This document shows, piece after piece, positions 38,892 to 45,300 of a stretch of DNA of 64,000 nt. The stretch's first letter is position 1, and every line of letters starts with the position of its first letter. Below the pieces are notes generated by a model, which made no database searches, had not been told where the DNA came from, and worked only from the letters and a program-made list of their open reading frames with translations. The stretch is from Candidatus Shapirobacteria bacterium (lineage in GTDB: Bacteria > Patescibacteriota > Microgenomatia > UBA12405). The DNA lies in the NCBI GenBank assembly GCA_030698565.1, contig JAUYJS010000005.1, forward strand, positions 90,497-154,496, in the 5' to 3' direction. The translations under genes were made by a program, and so were the position numbers.

Positions 38892-40436
38892 GTGTTAACA
38901 AAGATTTTCAGCGTGGCAAGTATTGGACTAAAAGCGATTGATATCGATGTGGAAGTAAATGTGGCAGAAATGGGTTTTCCGGGATTTGGGATTGTTGGTT
39001 TAGCTAGTAAAGCGGTTGAAGAATCGAAAGAAAGAATTAAAACTGCGATCGTAAATTCGGATATTGAGTTTCCAAATAAAAAAATTACGATTAATTTGGC
39101 TCCAGCTGACATACCAAAAGAAGGCTCTTGCTATGATTTGCCCATGGCTATAGGAGTAATAGCGTCTACGGGTGAGGTTAGATTGCCAAGTGAAAAATCA
39201 TATTTTTATGGAGAACTTTCTTTGGATGGAGGTCTAAGACACACCAAGGGCGTATTTTTGTTAGCAATTTTAGCCAAAGAACAGGGAATTAAAAATATAT
39301 TTGTACCTCGTCTTTGCGCAAATGAAGCAAGTGTAATTGAAGGTATAAAAGTATTCCCGGTTGACAGTTTAAAAAGTCTTATTAGACATTTAAATGGCGA
39401 TAAATTAATTCAACCACTAATCACAATTGATAAAGAAGAGTTGATTTTTGAAGCCGAACCAGAATTTGATTTTAGTGAAATTTTGGGGCAAGAACAGGCA
39501 AAAAGAGCATTGGAAATTGCGGCGGCTGGAGGACATAACATTTTTATGATGGGGCCACCTGGATCAGGAAAAACAATGCTTTCCCGAGCATTACCAGGTA
39601 TTTTACCTATACTAACCGAAAAAGAAAGTTTGGAAGTTACTAAAATTTATTCTATTTCTGGAAACATTCCTCCAGGCGGTTCTCTGGTTCGTCGAAGACC
39701 GTTTAGATCACCCCATCATACAACTTCACAAATTGGATTAATTGGCGGTGGGAGTAACCCCAGACCTGGTGAAGTGTCTTTGGCTCACAGAGGCGTACTT
39801 TTTTTGGACGAATTTCCTGAGTTTAATCGGCATACTATCGAGGCTTTGAGACAGCCAATTGAAGATGGCAATATAAATATTTCCCGGGCTAGTGGATCGG
39901 TAAATTATCCAGCCCAATTTATGTTGGTAGCTTCGGCAAATCCTTGCCAGTGTGGGTTTTTGGGCGATACCAAAAAGGAATGCAAATGTAATGTTCACCA
40001 GATTCTAAATTATCAAAGAAAACTATCTGGACCAATTATGGACAGAATTGATTTGCATTTGAATGTACCAGCTGTAGATATAAATAAATTAATGATATTG
40101 CCGGATAAGAATGAAAATAGATCGGCTAAATCAAGTGATATTCGAAAAAAAGTGATGGATGCTCGTGAAATTCAAACACAAAGATTTAAAAATACTAATA
40201 ATCTTTACAGCAATTCTGATATGAAAAATATTCACTTAAAAGAATTTGCCAATATGACCAACGAAGCCAATTTATTATTAAAACAGGCAGTTAATAAATT
40301 TTCTCTGTCAGCCCGAGCTTATTTTAGATTGATAAAAGTGTCGCGAACTATTGCTGATTTGTCGGCTAGTGAAGCTATTTTAGATAAGCATGTGGCCGAA
40401 GCACTTCAATATAGAATCAGATCAGAAAGCGTATGA
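38892..40436 (+). CDS. comM: YifB/ComM family Mg-chelatase-like AAA+ ATPase
   Basis: N-terminal Lon-like domain (FSVASIGLKAIDIDVEVN) and an AAA+ core with Walker A and B, GGHNIFMMGPPGSGKTMLS ... LFLDEFPEF. 514 aa. Confidence 0.85.
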   Translation: MLTKIFSVASIGLKAIDIDVEVNVAEMGFPGFGIVGLASKAVEESKERIKTAIVNSDIEFPNKKITINLAPADIPKEGSCYDLPMAIGVIASTGEVRLPSEKSYFYGELSLDGGLRHTKGVFLLAILAKEQGIKNIFVPRLCANEASVIEGIKVFPVDSLKSLIRHLNGDKLIQPLITIDKEELIFEAEPEFDFSEILGQEQAKRALEIAAAGGHNIFMMGPPGSGKTMLSRALPGILPILTEKESLEVTKIYSISGNIPPGGSLVRRRPFRSPHHTTSQIGLIGGGSNPRPGEVSLAHRGVLFLDEFPEFNRHTIEALRQPIEDGNINISRASGSVNYPAQFMLVASANPCQCGFLGDTKKECKCNVHQILNYQRKLSGPIMDRIDLHLNVPAVDINKLMILPDKNENRSAKSSDIRKKVMDAREIQTQRFKNTNNLYSNSDMKNIHLKEFANMTNEANLLLKQAVNKFSLSARAYFRLIKVSRTIADLSASEAILDKHVAEALQYRIRSESV

Positions 40437-40807
40437 AACAACTTAATTATTTAAAAGGTAAAAATGGTGAGTTAATTGCCAAAAACTATCTTTTGGAAAA
40501 AGATTATAAATTTGTAGAGCAGAATTACAAAAATTATTTGGGCGAAATTGATTTGATTATGAGTTTTAGAGATATTTTAGTTTTTGTAGAAGTTAAATTA
40601 AAAGTCGGCAATAGATTTGGTTTACCAGAGGAAATGATTAACAGAAACAAAATTAGTAGAGTCAAAAGAGTGGCTGAAAGTTATTTGGTGTTGAATCCAA
40701 TAATATCTCAAAATTATAAAAAATACAGATTGGATGCGATTTGTGTGGTGGTCAATGAATTGAATTGTATCAAAAGAATTAATCACTACAAAAATATTGA
40801 ATTTTAA
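40433..40807 (+). CDS. yraN: YraN-family (UPF0102) endonuclease
   Basis: GELIAKNYLLEKDYKFVEQNYK...GEIDLIM...LVFVEVK is the YraN signature. It overlaps comM by 4 nt. Confidence 0.75.
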   Translation: MKQLNYLKGKNGELIAKNYLLEKDYKFVEQNYKNYLGEIDLIMSFRDILVFVEVKLKVGNRFGLPEEMINRNKISRVKRVAESYLVLNPIISQNYKKYRLDAICVVVNELNCIKRINHYKNIEF

Positions 40808-41693
40808 TATGAGATATTGGAAAAAATGGCCTATTAACCAGATCAATGTAGATGATGAAAGATTTCCGAAATATTTAAAATCGATTAAAACATGTCCTAA
40901 AAAATTATTTTTTAGAGGTAATTGGAACTCAAATATTTTTGAAAAAACTATTGGCGTGGTTGGCAGTAGACGAATTACCAGATATGGCCGTGATGTAATT
41001 GCAAAATTTGTACCAACTTTTGTCGGTAATAAAATTACAATAATTTCTGGATTCATGTATGGAGTCGACAGTGAAGCTCATAAAACATGTGTTGAAAACG
41101 GTGGAAAAACGATAGCTGTTTTAGGCGGTGGACTTAATTATATTTATCCTCCGGAAAATGATAATTTATATTCTTTGATTTTAGAAAACGGCGGATTAGT
41201 ATTGTCTGAATACGAAGCTGATTTTAAACCAACTTTATGGAGTTTTCCTCAAAGAAATAGAATTGTATCGGCCTTATCGACCATAGGAATTCTGGTTATT
41301 GAAGCTGGTTTAAATTCAGGCAGTTTAATTACGGCAAAAATTGCCAAAAAGCAGGGTAAAAAAATATTTTCAATTCCGGGTCAAATTAATTCTTCAACGT
41401 CTACTGGAACTAATTGGTTAATTAAAAATTATAATGGGATTCTGGTGAGCAGTCCTGATGATATTTTGGAGAGTAGTTTTAAAATTAACGCTACTCAAAT
41501 TGATTTGTTTGAGCCGGATTTAAGTGAGATTGAAAGAAAAATAATCGGTTTATTGAAGAGTGAAGAATTAAGCGTCGACGAATTGTCGATTAAATTAAAT
41601 TTAGCAATTGCTGATATTTCAATTAATTTATCAATGTTATTAATGAAGAATTTGATTGAGGAAGAAGCGGGGAAAGTTTATTTAAAAAATTAA
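40797..41693 (+). CDS. dprA: DNA processing protein DprA (Smf)
   Basis: The Rossmann core GVVGSRRITRYG...ISGFMYGVDSEAHKTCVENGGKTIAVLGGGLNYIYPPEN is present. It overlaps yraN by 11 nt. Confidence 0.85.
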   Translation: MNFNMRYWKKWPINQINVDDERFPKYLKSIKTCPKKLFFRGNWNSNIFEKTIGVVGSRRITRYGRDVIAKFVPTFVGNKITIISGFMYGVDSEAHKTCVENGGKTIAVLGGGLNYIYPPENDNLYSLILENGGLVLSEYEADFKPTLWSFPQRNRIVSALSTIGILVIEAGLNSGSLITAKIAKKQGKKIFSIPGQINSSTSTGTNWLIKNYNGILVSSPDDILESSFKINATQIDLFEPDLSEIERKIIGLLKSEELSVDELSIKLNLAIADISINLSMLLMKNLIEEEAGKVYLKN

Positions 41694-42851: not shown

Positions 42852-42923
42852 GGCCCCATCGTCTAGTGGTTCGGACACCAGGTTCTCATCCTGGTAACCG
42901 GAGTTCAATTCTCCGTGGGGTCA
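42852..42923 (+). tRNA. tRNA-Glu (anticodon CUC)
   Basis: Cloverleaf read manually: acceptor GGCCCCA/TGGGGTC, D-arm GTC-TAGTGGTTCG-GAC, anticodon stem CCAGG/CCTGG with loop TTCTCAT (CTC), T-arm CGGAG-TTCAATT-CTCCG, discriminator A. No CCA is encoded. Confidence 0.8.
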
Positions 42924-42986
42924 CACTTTTTTTTATAGGTCAAAAACGTGAAGATACCCTATATTTTGCTTATTTTCACGGTTATG

Positions 42987-43015
42987 TTGACAAAATCGTG
43001 AATAATCTCTATAAT
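42987..43015 (+). promoter_or_regulatory. Consensus sigma70 promoter TTGACA-17nt-TATAAT, 8 nt upstream of the Fic ATG (leaderless transcript likely)
   Basis: TTGACA at 42987-42992 and TATAAT at 43010-43015 with an exact 17-nt spacer. CGTGAA half-sites lie at about 42957 (inverted as TTCACG at about 42975) and 42997, overlapping the promoter. Confidence 0.5.
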
Positions 43016-43023
43016 TTGAGCAT

Positions 43024-43902
43024 ATGACTAAAATATCTAATGTTTTTAATAAAATAAATTCGCTTCGTCAAAGATATTATCAAGCTTTTAATGGTAAAGA
43101 TGCCCTTATTCAGCTTATTAGCGAGTCGGAAGTGGCTGAACAAGTTTATAATTCTAATGCTATTGAAAATAGTACTCTGACTCTTGAAGAAACTGAAAAA
43201 ATTCTTTTACAGATTGATTTGGACAGGTATATTACTGAACGGGAAATTTTTGAAGCTAAGAATTTGGCTCGAGTGGTTATTTATATAGATAAGAAAGCTA
43301 AAGAACAAGAACTTAATTTGGAGATGATTTTATCGCTTCATAAAATGCTGATTTCTAATATTCGAGATGATATTGCTGGAAGATTTAGAAAAGAAAATGA
43401 ATTTGTTCGAGTCGGTAGTTATATTGCTCCAAACCCAAAAGAAGTGATTGAGAGGCTTGAAAAAATGTTATCTGAATATAATGCCAGTAATAATGAAAAT
43501 ATTATTAAGCGTATTGCTCGTTTACATTTAACATTTGAATGTACTCATCCTTTTATTGATGGTAATGGTCGAATTGGTAGAGTTATTAATAACTATTTAT
43601 TAATAAGGGAGGGATTTGTACCTATAAATATAAAGTTTATTAATCGACAAAAATATTATGATGCTTTTAAGGAGTTTGAAGAAAAACAGACAACAACAAT
43701 TATGGAAGATATAGTAGGAAAAGCATTAACTAATAGTTATTATAAAAGATTAGCTTATTTAGAAGGTAAAAAAATCATCACTTTAATCGATTATGCTAAT
43801 AATAATAAACTTTCACACTCAAACCTTTTAAATAAGGCTGGTAGACAAACTATTGAAGCTTTTTTAGAAAAAAATGTTTGGAAAATTGGGGTTGATCAGT
43901 AA
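43024..43902 (+). CDS. Fic/Doc family protein (putative AMPylator) with an N-terminal autoinhibitory motif
   Basis: The canonical Fic motif HPFIDGNGRIGR, that is HxFx(D/E)GNGRxxR, is intact. The N-terminal SNAIEN matches the (S/T)xxxE(G/N) inhibitory-helix motif. Confidence 0.85.
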   Translation: MTKISNVFNKINSLRQRYYQAFNGKDALIQLISESEVAEQVYNSNAIENSTLTLEETEKILLQIDLDRYITEREIFEAKNLARVVIYIDKKAKEQELNLEMILSLHKMLISNIRDDIAGRFRKENEFVRVGSYIAPNPKEVIERLEKMLSEYNASNNENIIKRIARLHLTFECTHPFIDGNGRIGRVINNYLLIREGFVPINIKFINRQKYYDAFKEFEEKQTTTIMEDIVGKALTNSYYKRLAYLEGKKIITLIDYANNNKLSHSNLLNKAGRQTIEAFLEKNVWKIGVDQ

Positions 43903-43981
43903 AAACTTGTCCATTTTTCTGTATAAATTATATATACAATATTTTCGTTAATAAAATAAATAATTTCAAAATTAAATATTA

Positions 43982-44008
43982 GAGTTCGATTCTCCGTGGG
44001 GTCACACA
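43982..44008 (+). repeat. attR-like direct repeat of the tRNA-Glu 3' end
   Basis: GAGTTCGATTCTCCGTGGGGTCACAC (43983-44008) against GAGTTCAATTCTCCGTGGGGTCACAC in the tRNA (42901-42926), 25/26 identical. Confidence 0.65.
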
Positions 44009-44133: not shown

Positions 44134-45300
44134 TTAAGTAGCTGTTTTAAATTCGTTTAAGATGGTTTCCCTAACCATTTTTGAATTTTCATTATCAGCA
44201 CCTAAATGTGCTTGGTTATGCATAGAAAAAACCTTGTTCAAAATTCCACTTTTACGGTTTTTATTGGTGGTCCTTCTTAAATCACCGGGGAGTATTTGTC
44301 TTCCTCTCTTAACGAAATATCTAACCATTTTTAGAACTTCTTGGTCTTTATAATTTATTAAAATTGTTTTAATAACTCTTTCGATTTCGGCCGGTTCTCC
44401 TGTTCCTTTTGATCTTTGAATTTCCATGAAAGCCGTACTAATTAAAAGTTCAACAATGTCGATTGCCTTTTGTTCTCTTTCAATAATTTTCTTTACCCTA
44501 CCTTTGGCAATATCTATCTCTCCAACCTTTAATGTTATGTTTTCGGCTTCCATTTCTAATTTAAAAGCTTTTTCTTTCTTTACAATTTCAACCATTTGTT
44601 GATGCAAGGAATCTGTTCTTCTTTCTGACGGAGTAAGAATTATATCGGGAATATTTAGAACTGGATTTGAAACTTTCACTGCTTCTATTTCGGGGTGTTC
44701 TGAATCAGGTGTTGTCTTTATTGTTTCAGCATTTTGAAACATAACATCGCCTACGATGTCTCCTATTGGTCCAAATTGTTGGTGAACTGAGTCTATATAT
44801 TTTGTTTCCTCTGCAAGCGCCTGAAATCTATCTATCGCTTGTAATTTGGATGATCCAATTTTGTTTGCTGCAAAAATATCGGCAATAGCAATTCCTTTTG
44901 TGAGTATTTCAGGTTTTTTAATTACTATACCGTCTTTATATGGACCGTAATATTCGGATAGCCCGAGCCTTTCCACATTTACAGCAATTTCTTCTGGTGT
45001 GCCGCGTCGTCTCATAGGTTCTGCATGAAACACAAACCCTAATAATTTACCAAAATGATTTTTAGCCATACTTATAAAATCCTGTACATAATGATCGTCC
45101 CATTGTCTTAGGATCCTATCACCCCAAACATCTATTTTATCTATAAAACTAGAATGCATGTCGTAGACCAACTCGCCGTTTATGGTTTTCAGCTTTCCAC
45201 CGTAAACTCCAACTGTGCTCTCATAATCACTCGACGGAAGTGAATTTTTCATTAATTTATTTGATGCTTCTGAAATTCCTCTAGCTATTCTTTCTGCCAT
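44134..45300 (-). CDS. Hypothetical protein (388 aa), slightly GC-richer than its surroundings
   Basis: Long uninterrupted ORF with no recognisable motifs. It is adjacent to the Fic islet. Confidence 0.4.
   Translation of the reverse strand: MAERIARGISEASNKLMKNSLPSSDYESTVGVYGGKLKTINGELVYDMHSSFIDKIDVWGDRILRQWDDHYVQDFISMAKNHFGKLLGFVFHAEPMRRRGTPEEIAVNVERLGLSEYYGPYKDGIVIKKPEILTKGIAIADIFAANKIGSSKLQAIDRFQALAEETKYIDSVHQQFGPIGDIVGDVMFQNAETIKTTPDSEHPEIEAVKVSNPVLNIPDIILTPSERRTDSLHQQMVEIVKKEKAFKLEMEAENITLKVGEIDIAKGRVKKIIEREQKAIDIVELLISTAFMEIQRSKGTGEPAEIERVIKTILINYKDQEVLKMVRYFVKRGRQILPGDLRRTTNKNRKSGILNKVFSMHNQAHLGADNENSKMVRETILNEFKTAT

Follow-up and report, generated by a model that had tools for sequence, protein, structure and literature searches.

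Positions 42852 to ~44150 of the window (the whole 64,000-nucleotide stretch of the Candidatus Shapirobacteria contig JAUYJS010000005.1 analysed here, to which all coordinates refer) appear to be an attachment hot-spot, at the 3' end of a tRNA-Glu gene, for Patescibacteria conjugative or mobilizable elements that integrate by means of large serine recombinases (LSRs); we put the probability of this reading at about 0.6. The hot-spot would now hold the tRNA, a recombinase-less islet made up of a self-contained, autoinhibited Fic cassette, a second copy of the attachment (att) site, and the stump of an LSR gene. Most plausibly, the islet is cargo that has outlasted a conjugative element now decayed. 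A decayed integrative element whose cargo persists at a tRNA gene is of a known kind; what is unusual here is the overlap of the LSR gene with the tRNA, the length of the repeats and a recombinase-less islet of only 1 kb.

The duplicated tRNA-Glu end and the recombinase stump

The locus is laid out as follows, from left to right:

42852–42924, plus strand: intact tRNA-Glu(CUC), the chromosomal attachment target (ARAGORN; Rfam RF00005 at 42852–42923, 57.2 bits)
42901–42926, plus strand: att copy 1, comprising the T-stem end, T-loop, acceptor 3' strand and 3 nt beyond, within the functional tRNA (pattern search)
42927–42940, plus strand: left end of the islet, a T-run followed by ATAGGT, where the homology of the window, L081, L107, L110, L001 and L003 begins
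42941–43023, plus strand: conserved operator/promoter of 83 nt, with the same architecture in ~70 loci of many phyla
43024–43902, plus strand: Fic gene, 292 amino acids, class II (Pfam Fic)
43903–43981, no strand assigned: right spacer, 79 nt, AT-rich, ending in ...AATATTA(G), with indel-free homology in the window, L081, L107 and L110
43982–44007, plus strand: att copy 2, a 25/26 match to the tRNA 3' end (pattern search)
44008–~44150, minus strand: LSR gene remnant, the last ~44 codons before att copy 2 (tblastn; intact relative P0213)
44134–45300, minus strand: 388-aa chromosomal flanking gene outside the element, with no Pfam, NCBIfam or PADLOC match

The tRNA 3' end GAGTTCAATTCTCCGTGGGGTCACAC (42901–42926) recurs with one mismatch at 43982–44007; a pattern search finds these two matches in the window, and 0 of 100 shuffles yields a second one. 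The copies lie 1081 nt apart from start to start, with 1055 nt in between, and the only open reading frame (ORF) between them is that of the Fic protein, with no integration or transfer genes inside. An earlier note, made from the sequence alone, had pointed out both this lone gene and the 25/26-nt copy of the 3' end of tRNA-Glu(CUC) ~1.06 kb away, which it took to be an att duplication, naming a second, degraded tRNA as the alternative. ARAGORN, Rfam, the pattern search and the shuffles agree with it on each of these points, the repeat coordinates that it gave (43983–44008) being one base off the true ones. Neither Rfam (at E ≤ 1) nor ARAGORN finds a tRNA-like match at att copy 2, and on its left it is preceded by sequence that shares homology with the islet spacers of three other loci, at which the identical junction is found; a degraded second tRNA is thus rejected. 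Taken with the shuffles, these results already refute the idea that the repeat is a coincidence or the leftover of a second tRNA gene, the chance of which is negligible. An RNA-mediated origin of the fragment is likewise rejected, as direct reading of the sequence shows the copy to terminate in the genomic ...CACAC and not in CCA. The interpretation of the repeat as an attachment-site duplication at the tRNA-Glu gene is thus supported.

On its right, att copy 2 runs in frame into what remains of a recombinase gene. The LSR of L110, a locus in a related genome, aligns by tblastn with the minus strand of the window from 44138 to 43941 (68% over 66 amino acids, E = 4e-22), and the remnant matches the intact LSR P0213 at 83% over 59 amino acids. 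The frame is open from 44156 through att copy 2, whose minus-strand translation is CDPTENRT, and is prolonged by the spacer to a stop at 43896–43898 that overlaps the Fic stop. About 130–150 nt of the 3' end of the LSR gene survive, with the deletion endpoint at ~44139–44156, where it adjoins the stop of the 388-aa gene or overlaps with it. The sole mismatch between the att copies, an unpaired T-loop purine, also falls in this frame: the antisense of the A at 42907 in the functional tRNA gives a TGA stop directly after CDPTEN, whereas copy 2, with G at 43988, stays open.

The family of this recombinase (1687 matches at E ≤ 1e-20) is closely bound to tRNA genes. At least 83 of the 120 best LSR homologs (P0193–P0312) end in an antisense translation of a tRNA T-arm and acceptor: the tail ...DPTGNRTPISRMRICRPNH is the antisense of the tRNA-Glu(CUC) of L110 and the tail ...DSSGSRTHDYLDESQVS that of the tRNA-Glu(UUC) of L081, while others derive from several tRNA types in all three reading frames (e.g., ...GIRTHDL..., ...RGFEPL..., ...GNRTPIS...). 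That the genes end in antisense-tRNA sequence marks tRNA 3' ends as their attachment sites. In the usual arrangement the tRNA gene is convergent with, and overlapped by, the LSR gene; in L110 and the window the Fic islet and an extra att copy are interposed between the two. Since the LSR genes overlap their targets, the integration state alters the last ~8–35 residues of the protein.

Three further loci carry related islets. In L110 (Fic P0101), a 378-aa gene 65% identical to that of the window stands on the left, followed by tRNA-Glu(CUC) at the orthologous place, the Fic islet, a 24/24 att copy, and then a convergent 592-aa LSR ORF, a T4 (TraG/VirD4-like) coupling protein and a Replic_Relax relaxase. 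In the 592-aa ORF a Resolvase domain scores 34.3 bits (cutoff 23.3); the Recombinase and Zn_ribbon_recom matches stay below their cutoffs but stand in the order typical of LSRs. The closest Fic homolog (P0001, 95%) is that of L081, where the gene context is unrelated and the islet starts straight behind tRNA-Glu(UUC). The left end of this islet (TTTTTGTTTTATAGGTC...) is the same, and its spacer, homologous and 80 nt long, runs up to ...AAATATTAG; the 3' end of the genome's own tRNA then recurs without mismatch over 25 nt, and no LSR is present. In L107 (2778–3983; Fic 89%) the islet begins 46 nt downstream of tRNA-Glu(UUC), and the fragment on its right is CUC-like, mismatching the local tRNA; this mismatch likely stems from a rearrangement between islets or a cross-tRNA jump. 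The right junction, AATATTAG followed by RGTTCGA, is identical in the window, L081, L107 and L110, that is, in four loci with two tRNA isoacceptors.

The earlier note had ascribed the insertion to a tyrosine integrase, in which case the islet would be a satellite mobilized in trans by an integrase encoded elsewhere. A direct repeat of 24–26 nt from a tRNA 3' end, with the tRNA intact, is indeed the textbook signature of such enzymes (PMC5704250), and the L081 islet is without any recombinase. However, the search for a tyrosine integrase that the note had called for, made in the window only as a partial screen (all ORFs with 120 or more amino acids by a crude motif search, and the ten unassigned ones by Pfam), saw neither such an enzyme nor any recombinase other than the LSR remnant. 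The only recombinase footprint, in the window as in the intact L110, is that of an LSR, standing in frame against att copy 2 and belonging to a family whose genes overlap tRNAs, and this makes a tyrosine-integrase origin improbable. The note had further stated that no integrase was present; the surviving 3' end of the LSR gene, at 44008–~44150, lies just outside the interval that it described.

Origin of the islet

Under the preferred reading, a conjugative element would have docked at tRNA-Glu beside the islet and later been deleted up to the 388-aa gene, with the LSR stump left behind. The islet itself probably derives from the recombinase-distal end of an LSR element, as its spacer gives the LSR ORF an in-frame end, just as the other end of a circularized element would, and as in L082 a conjugation cluster has Fic at its end. 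It could have been moved, or joined in tandem by accretion, by the LSR of a neighboring or incoming element. The islet would thus resemble a cis-mobilizable element (CIME), with attL and attR kept and the integration and transfer genes lost. The earlier note had left the choice between a decayed stump and a satellite mobilized in trans, and there is some truth in both: as a locus it is a decayed stump, and at other tRNA-Glu genes, as in L081, the islet also stands as a discrete recombinase-less unit.

Several observations weigh against the reading of the locus as an LSR hot-spot. The serine-recombinase elements described so far have very short flanking repeats (~2 bp of attP/attB identity) and usually disrupt their target (PMC5704250), whereas here the repeat is 24–26 nt long and the tRNA is intact; a repeat of this length that spares the tRNA does not fit an LSR. 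Although the tRNAs of the window, L081 and L110 differ, each of the two repeat copies agrees with the tRNA at its own locus, so that conservative recombination needs donors with near-identical tRNAs. The CUC-like fragment of L107, beside a UUC tRNA and with 46 extra nucleotides at the left end, needs a secondary rearrangement. None of the 80 Fic loci drawn from GTDB has this LSR within 6 kb, and the link to LSRs holds for the sub-lineage of the window only. Finally, neither an empty site (tRNA-Glu directly followed by ATTGGGACTAAGG; both metagenome scans were null), nor an excised circle of the islet, nor the far end of the L110 element was retrieved. The islet-free junction of L110 would read tRNA-Glu and then CAACGGGTACAAGG, and the circular junction of the islet ...AATATTAG, the tRNA 3' end and TTTTTTTTATAGG, or ...AAATATTAG, the tRNA 3' end and TTTTTTTTATAGGTC.

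Another account has one conjugative element only, beginning directly behind the tRNA, whose left end would consist of Fic, spacer, tRNA-like segment and LSR without a break; att copy 2 would then be an internal attP-like segment of the LSR ORF, and Fic-only islets would arise by deletion or recombination at it. The LSR ORF of L110 is in keeping with this, running uninterrupted through the att copy and spacer to a stop that overlaps the Fic stop, as is the spacer frame, which is open and of equal length in all four loci (window, L081, L107 and L110). Against it, the segment copies the own tRNA of each genome (24/24, 25/25 and 25/26), as expected of a product of recombination and not of coding constraint, and most LSR homologs read straight into the tRNA itself. 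Moreover, substitutions in the spacer "tail" are spread evenly over codon positions, by which coding constraint on it is rejected; this absence of codon-position bias counts against the single element and also against the LSR hot-spot that we prefer. We consider a single element of this kind unlikely.

That each repeat copy matches the local tRNA in three genomes with different tRNAs would also fit an entry that was not site-specific, either by a transposase with a long target duplication or by homologous or illegitimate recombination of transformed DNA with the tRNA as a homology arm. Directly upstream of the hot-spot (38892–41693, plus strand) lie genes for ComM/YifB-like (Mg_chelatase), YraN (UPF0102) and DprA proteins, which take part in the handling of incoming DNA during natural transformation, and many other Fic loci are bracketed by local gene-end repeats of 25–215 nt that are 85–99% identical. 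On the other hand, four loci with two isoacceptors share the right junction down to the last nucleotide, direct reading of the window and L081 sequences shows that the islet ends are not inverted repeats, a recombinase remnant is adjacent, and the tRNA fragment of L107 mismatches its local tRNA. Entry of this type is thus quite improbable, and the LSR hot-spot remains the reading that we follow below.

Independent short-read assemblies of the same or a related strain break at these sites: contigs of the same strain (L086 and L087) inside Fic (window 43380) and inside att copy 2 (44002), and L111 starts at L110:2112, a single k-mer ahead of the first base that follows the tRNA, the very point expected of a branch there. 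These breaks are suggestive, being compatible with alternative alleles and multi-copy or polymorphic junctions, and also with low coverage.

The 388-aa gene on the right is unrelated to the LSR, and its interpretation as a degraded recombinase is rejected. The best relatives of its product reach 48% identity at most, too distant for synteny to be kept. The family is confined to Patescibacteria, and the homolog in L088 lies among genes for thymidylate synthase, dihydrofolate reductase (DHFR), dCTP deaminase and a nucleoside kinase; from this company, the protein may be an uncharacterized component of nucleotide metabolism.

A self-contained Fic cassette

The product of the islet gene has a Fic domain (Pfam PF02661, E = 4.5e-23, 82.4 bits against a cutoff of 24). 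Its catalytic motif, HPFIDGNGRIGR at residues 175–186, fits HxFx(D/E)GNGRxxR, and the H, P, F, D, G, N, G, R, I, G and R of the motif are invariant in 34 homologs. So is the inhibitory motif SNAIEN (residues 44–49), which lies on the same chain, N-terminal to the core, and aligns with TVAIEG of FICD, the best PDB matches being the human and nematode FICD proteins. By these motifs and alignments the protein is a class II Fic with an intramolecular inhibitory helix, in agreement with the earlier note, which had recognized a 292-aa Fic with a perfect catalytic motif and an SxxxE(N/G) helix. The NCBIfam equivalog cutoffs are not reached (SoFic 41.5 against 550 bits; NmFic 32.4 against 230 bits); the top defense-library matches are PADLOC PDC-S04 (E = 2.3e-34) and SoFic (5e-28), the PADLOC models having no curated cutoff. 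The C-terminal ~50 amino acids are strongly conserved (ITLxDYAxNNKLSHSNLxNKAxRQTIEAFLEKNVWKIG) and have no Pfam family match and no PDB sequence match. An AlphaFold model from a shallow alignment is poor (predicted local distance difference test, pLDDT, 56), with three short C-terminal helices at low confidence.

Homologs were surveyed by a protein search and by a scan of one genome per species, the latter giving the 80 GTDB loci (L001–L080). The protein search scored at least 8000 candidates, the best 120 of which are 82–95% identical, while the window's Fic protein itself has no database record that we could find; a 100% match to Q8P53_02015 marks the window as part of a Candidatus Shapirobacteria metagenome-assembled genome. 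In the one-genome-per-species scan the cassette, a three-box operator plus the ORF, recurs at 69–87% identity across nearly all Patescibacteria classes, including Shapiro-, Collier-, Roizman-, Gottesman-, Magasanik-, Uhr-, Falkow-, Moran-, Yanofsky-, Komeili-, Kerfeld-, Peregrini- and Saccharibacteria and many others. Outside the Patescibacteria it is found in Chlamydiae, Coxiellaceae, Bdellovibrionales, Margulisiibacteriota, Fibrobacterota and "Gammaproteobacteria" bins, some of which labels may be binning errors. No Fic match above 35% identity was found in the cultured phage and plasmid collections, and viral contigs gave none for Fic or the recombinase, the AT-rich 21-mer of the right end yielding only chance-like viral matches.

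The surroundings of these copies vary. Downstream of the C-terminal ...WKIG(V/I)(D/E) nothing is conserved across the 80 loci, with neither an attC-like site nor terminal inverted repeats, and the 139 nearest-neighbor genes comprise 145 Pfam families, with no recurrent recombinase or antitoxin among them. Occasional neighbors are RhuM-Fic, AbiE, and DNA methylase or restriction-modification genes, along with PADLOC candidates. With the upstream sequence conserved and the downstream sequence and neighbors not, the transferable unit is the operator plus the ORF. An integron gene cassette does not fit, as no conserved downstream end or attC is present across the 80 loci and no IntI was seen. Targeting of tRNA genes as a general trait of the cassette is also rejected: only a handful of the 80 loci have a tRNA directly upstream, and none of these has a tRNA-end repeat. 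Even close homologs (93%, 92% and 90%) lie in settings as different as the edge of a type IV secretion system (T4SS) cluster, a tRNA cluster behind a 73-aa ORF, and the space between MFS and DnaB genes.

In the promoter, TTGACA (42987–42992) and TATAAT (43010–43015), 17 nt apart, are the sole 12/12 consensus match in the region; TATAAT stands 8 nt from the ATG, and no Shine-Dalgarno-like sequence is present in those 8 nt. Around it are three boxes, CGTGAA at 42947–42952, TTCACG at 42975–42980 and CGTGAA at 42997–43002, the first two of which form an 11-nt inverted repeat in the family consensus, while the third lies between the −35 and −10 elements. Across ~70 homologous loci of many phyla the ~90 nt upstream of Fic are conserved, the consensus being (C)AAAACCGTGAAAA, ~16 variable nucleotides, TTTTCACGGTTATgTTGACAAAAcCGTGAAAAagnnTATAAT, and then usually 8 nt and the ATG. 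The promoter described in the earlier note, the CGTGAA/TTCACG sites overlapping it and the arrangement from which a short or absent leader was deduced are all kept in these loci, and we propose that the Fic mRNA is leaderless or near-leaderless. The note had also called the gene strongly expressed; the conserved operator argues against this, the promoter being likely repressed.

In the chlamydial copies all boxes are jointly altered to CGTTAA/TTAACG. As the operator travels and co-varies with the Fic gene, it would need a binder encoded by the cassette; the three boxes are putative operators, most simply bound by the C-terminal helical domain of Fic itself. The chlamydial copies L066, L067, L069 and L070 have lysine at Fic position 273 (window 43840–43842), at which others have N, G or T; it is one of four residues specific to the chlamydial group and sits in the conserved C-terminal helix. 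This lysine may be a determinant of operator specificity and offers weak evidence for a cassette-encoded binder of the boxes. Set against such a role are the Fic C-terminus itself, which matches no recognizable DNA-binding family in Pfam or PDB, and the poor structure model; both count against the wider reading too.

No small antitoxin gene adjoins Fic: the cassette consists of the 83-nt promoter and the ORF, with no conserved partner among the 139 nearest neighbors, as the earlier note had observed for the window. With no room and no conserved neighbor for a second gene, the class I toxin-antitoxin systems (FicT/FicA, VbhT/VbhA) and Doc/Phd do not apply. We infer that Fic is an autoinhibited AMP-transferase, predicted to be toxin-like and to serve addiction or defense (abortive infection), and that it would be held off twice, by repression and by its inhibitory glutamate. 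Released, it would AMPylate an essential target as an addiction or abortive-infection toxin, a role that would explain how Fic outlived its carrier and how it spread.

In L082 and L110 Fic adjoins T4SS or conjugation genes, which could instead mean that it is an effector sent through the T4SS of the element into the bacterial host cell of the episymbiont or into a recipient, with the C-terminus as its secretion signal. The earlier note had seen a plausible host- or self-modifying effector in the enzyme. Fic toxins with C-terminal translocation domains are known on conjugative systems (VbhT; PMC5675462), and the lack of a recognizable DNA-binding family in the C-terminus would be in line with this. 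Yet most copies are not beside secretion genes (139 nearest neighbors in 80 genomes), the co-variation of operator and gene would require a binder from the cassette, and the best defense-library matches are single-gene candidates; an effector is thus not a likely identity for the protein.

Some of the cassette's homologs have flanks worth recording in their own right. In L082 the Fic copy lies where a type IV secretion gene cluster ends, beside tRNA-Gln. There and in L092 (L082:5455–7104 and L092:3460–5031) a 92–93% identical Fic is preceded by a 73–74-aa ORF with no Pfam match and, in two unrelated contexts, bracketed by copies of one ~46–92-nt sequence (GCTTGATAGGTTTCCATCAG...). Direct repeats bracket Fic in L003, L005, L006, L009, L012, L015, L022, L024, L029, L034, L042 and L082; they are 25–215 nt long and 85–99% identical, begin 1–90 nt past the Fic stop and copy sequence upstream of Fic, and often they form the 5' end of the gene that follows, which is of the GIY-YIG type in L006 and peptidase-like in L029. 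In the Collierbacteria locus L040 (1015–5718), three cassettes, AbiEii/AbiEi, Fic and AbiEi/AbiEii, stand in tandem, separated by 56–82-nt copies of the 3' end of a radical-SAM gene (65–83% identical copies), with no recombinase in view. Decayed att-site elements that leave toxin-like cargo would also explain the many Fic loci bracketed by repeats of a local gene's 5' or 3' end, L040 among them.

Known systems and significance

Several known systems share part of this architecture. The staphylococcal cassette chromosome (SCC) and pseudo-SCC elements of staphylococci lie at orfX (rlmH), use Ccr LSRs, keep the 3' end of the conserved gene and are flanked by direct repeats of ~15–20 nt; their tandem arrays include recombinase-less cassettes dependent on Ccr in trans. 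The islet is like them in its position at a preserved gene 3' end, its direct repeats and its want of a recombinase, and unlike them in the tRNA target, in the LSR gene that crosses the att site into the tRNA, and in the association with conjugative elements (coupling protein, relaxase) of Patescibacteria. The integrases of the SSV type, from archaeal fuselloviruses, are tyrosine recombinases with their own attP inside the gene, which is split on integration. As in these, the att site lies inside the LSR frame and the integration state changes the 3' end of the gene; unlike in these, the enzyme is a serine recombinase and only the last ~8–35 codons change.

CIMEs are units flanked by attL and attR, without integration or transfer genes, that undergo tandem accretion with autonomous elements (PMC5704250). 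Corresponding features are found here: the window, L081 and L110 all have attL and attR, the islet is free of integration and transfer genes, and in L110 the att site is shared with an autonomous element. Those related to ICESt1 and ICESt3 of Streptococcus thermophilus (PMC5704250) are, like the islet, short and att-flanked, with addiction- or defense-type cargo that survives, and the tandem of islet and recombinase-bearing element in L110, with stumps left by decay, is like CIME accretion. Unlike the streptococcal CIMEs, which go with tyrosine integrases, the islet is associated with an LSR and has but one gene in 1.06 kb, and its mobilization is a prediction only.

As for the cargo, it shares with the class II Fic proteins (human FICD/HYPE, the Clostridium and Bacteroides Fic proteins and SoFic; PMC3667792) the Fic fold domain, the HPFx[DE]GNGRxxR motif, the (S/T)xxxE(G/N) helix and the lack of a separate antitoxin. 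It differs from the solved class II structures in being at most ~30% identical to them and in having its own C-terminal domain of ~50 amino acids without a family match. The PADLOC PDC-S04 and SoFic candidates are, like the islet Fic, single genes, often near AbiE, RhuM-Fic or restriction-modification genes and on mobile DNA; the islet Fic family, for its part, is not known to have anti-phage activity.

In the literature that we searched, we found no description of a Patescibacteria LSR family with tRNA 3'-end attachment and genes overlapping the tRNA, nor of a Fic cassette with a conserved operator common to distant phyla. Going further, one could picture the cassette as a 0.97-kb self-contained, self-repressing selfish gene that has recently swept through essentially all Patescibacteria and the Chlamydiae, Coxiellaceae and Bdellovibrionales (70–95% identity), riding att-site elements and persisting by addiction or phage protection, while the att site in the recombinase's own 3' end might act as a directionality switch by way of the altered tail. 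This wider picture is tentative and, taken as a whole, rather doubtful. If true, the C-terminal tail of the recombinase would differ with integration, excision or docking beside the Fic islet, giving it a built-in directionality switch.

With the locus so interpreted, a lone gene between repeats becomes a readable history: a conjugative element arrived and docked at tRNA-Glu, then decayed, leaving its Fic cargo in place. The tRNA-overlapping LSR family would offer a handle for locating mobile elements in the hard-to-study genomes of Patescibacteria. The Fic cassette, common at very high identity to phyla with little else in common, marks recent gene flow between episymbionts and bacteria that live inside cells, and is a candidate toxin or defense gene.

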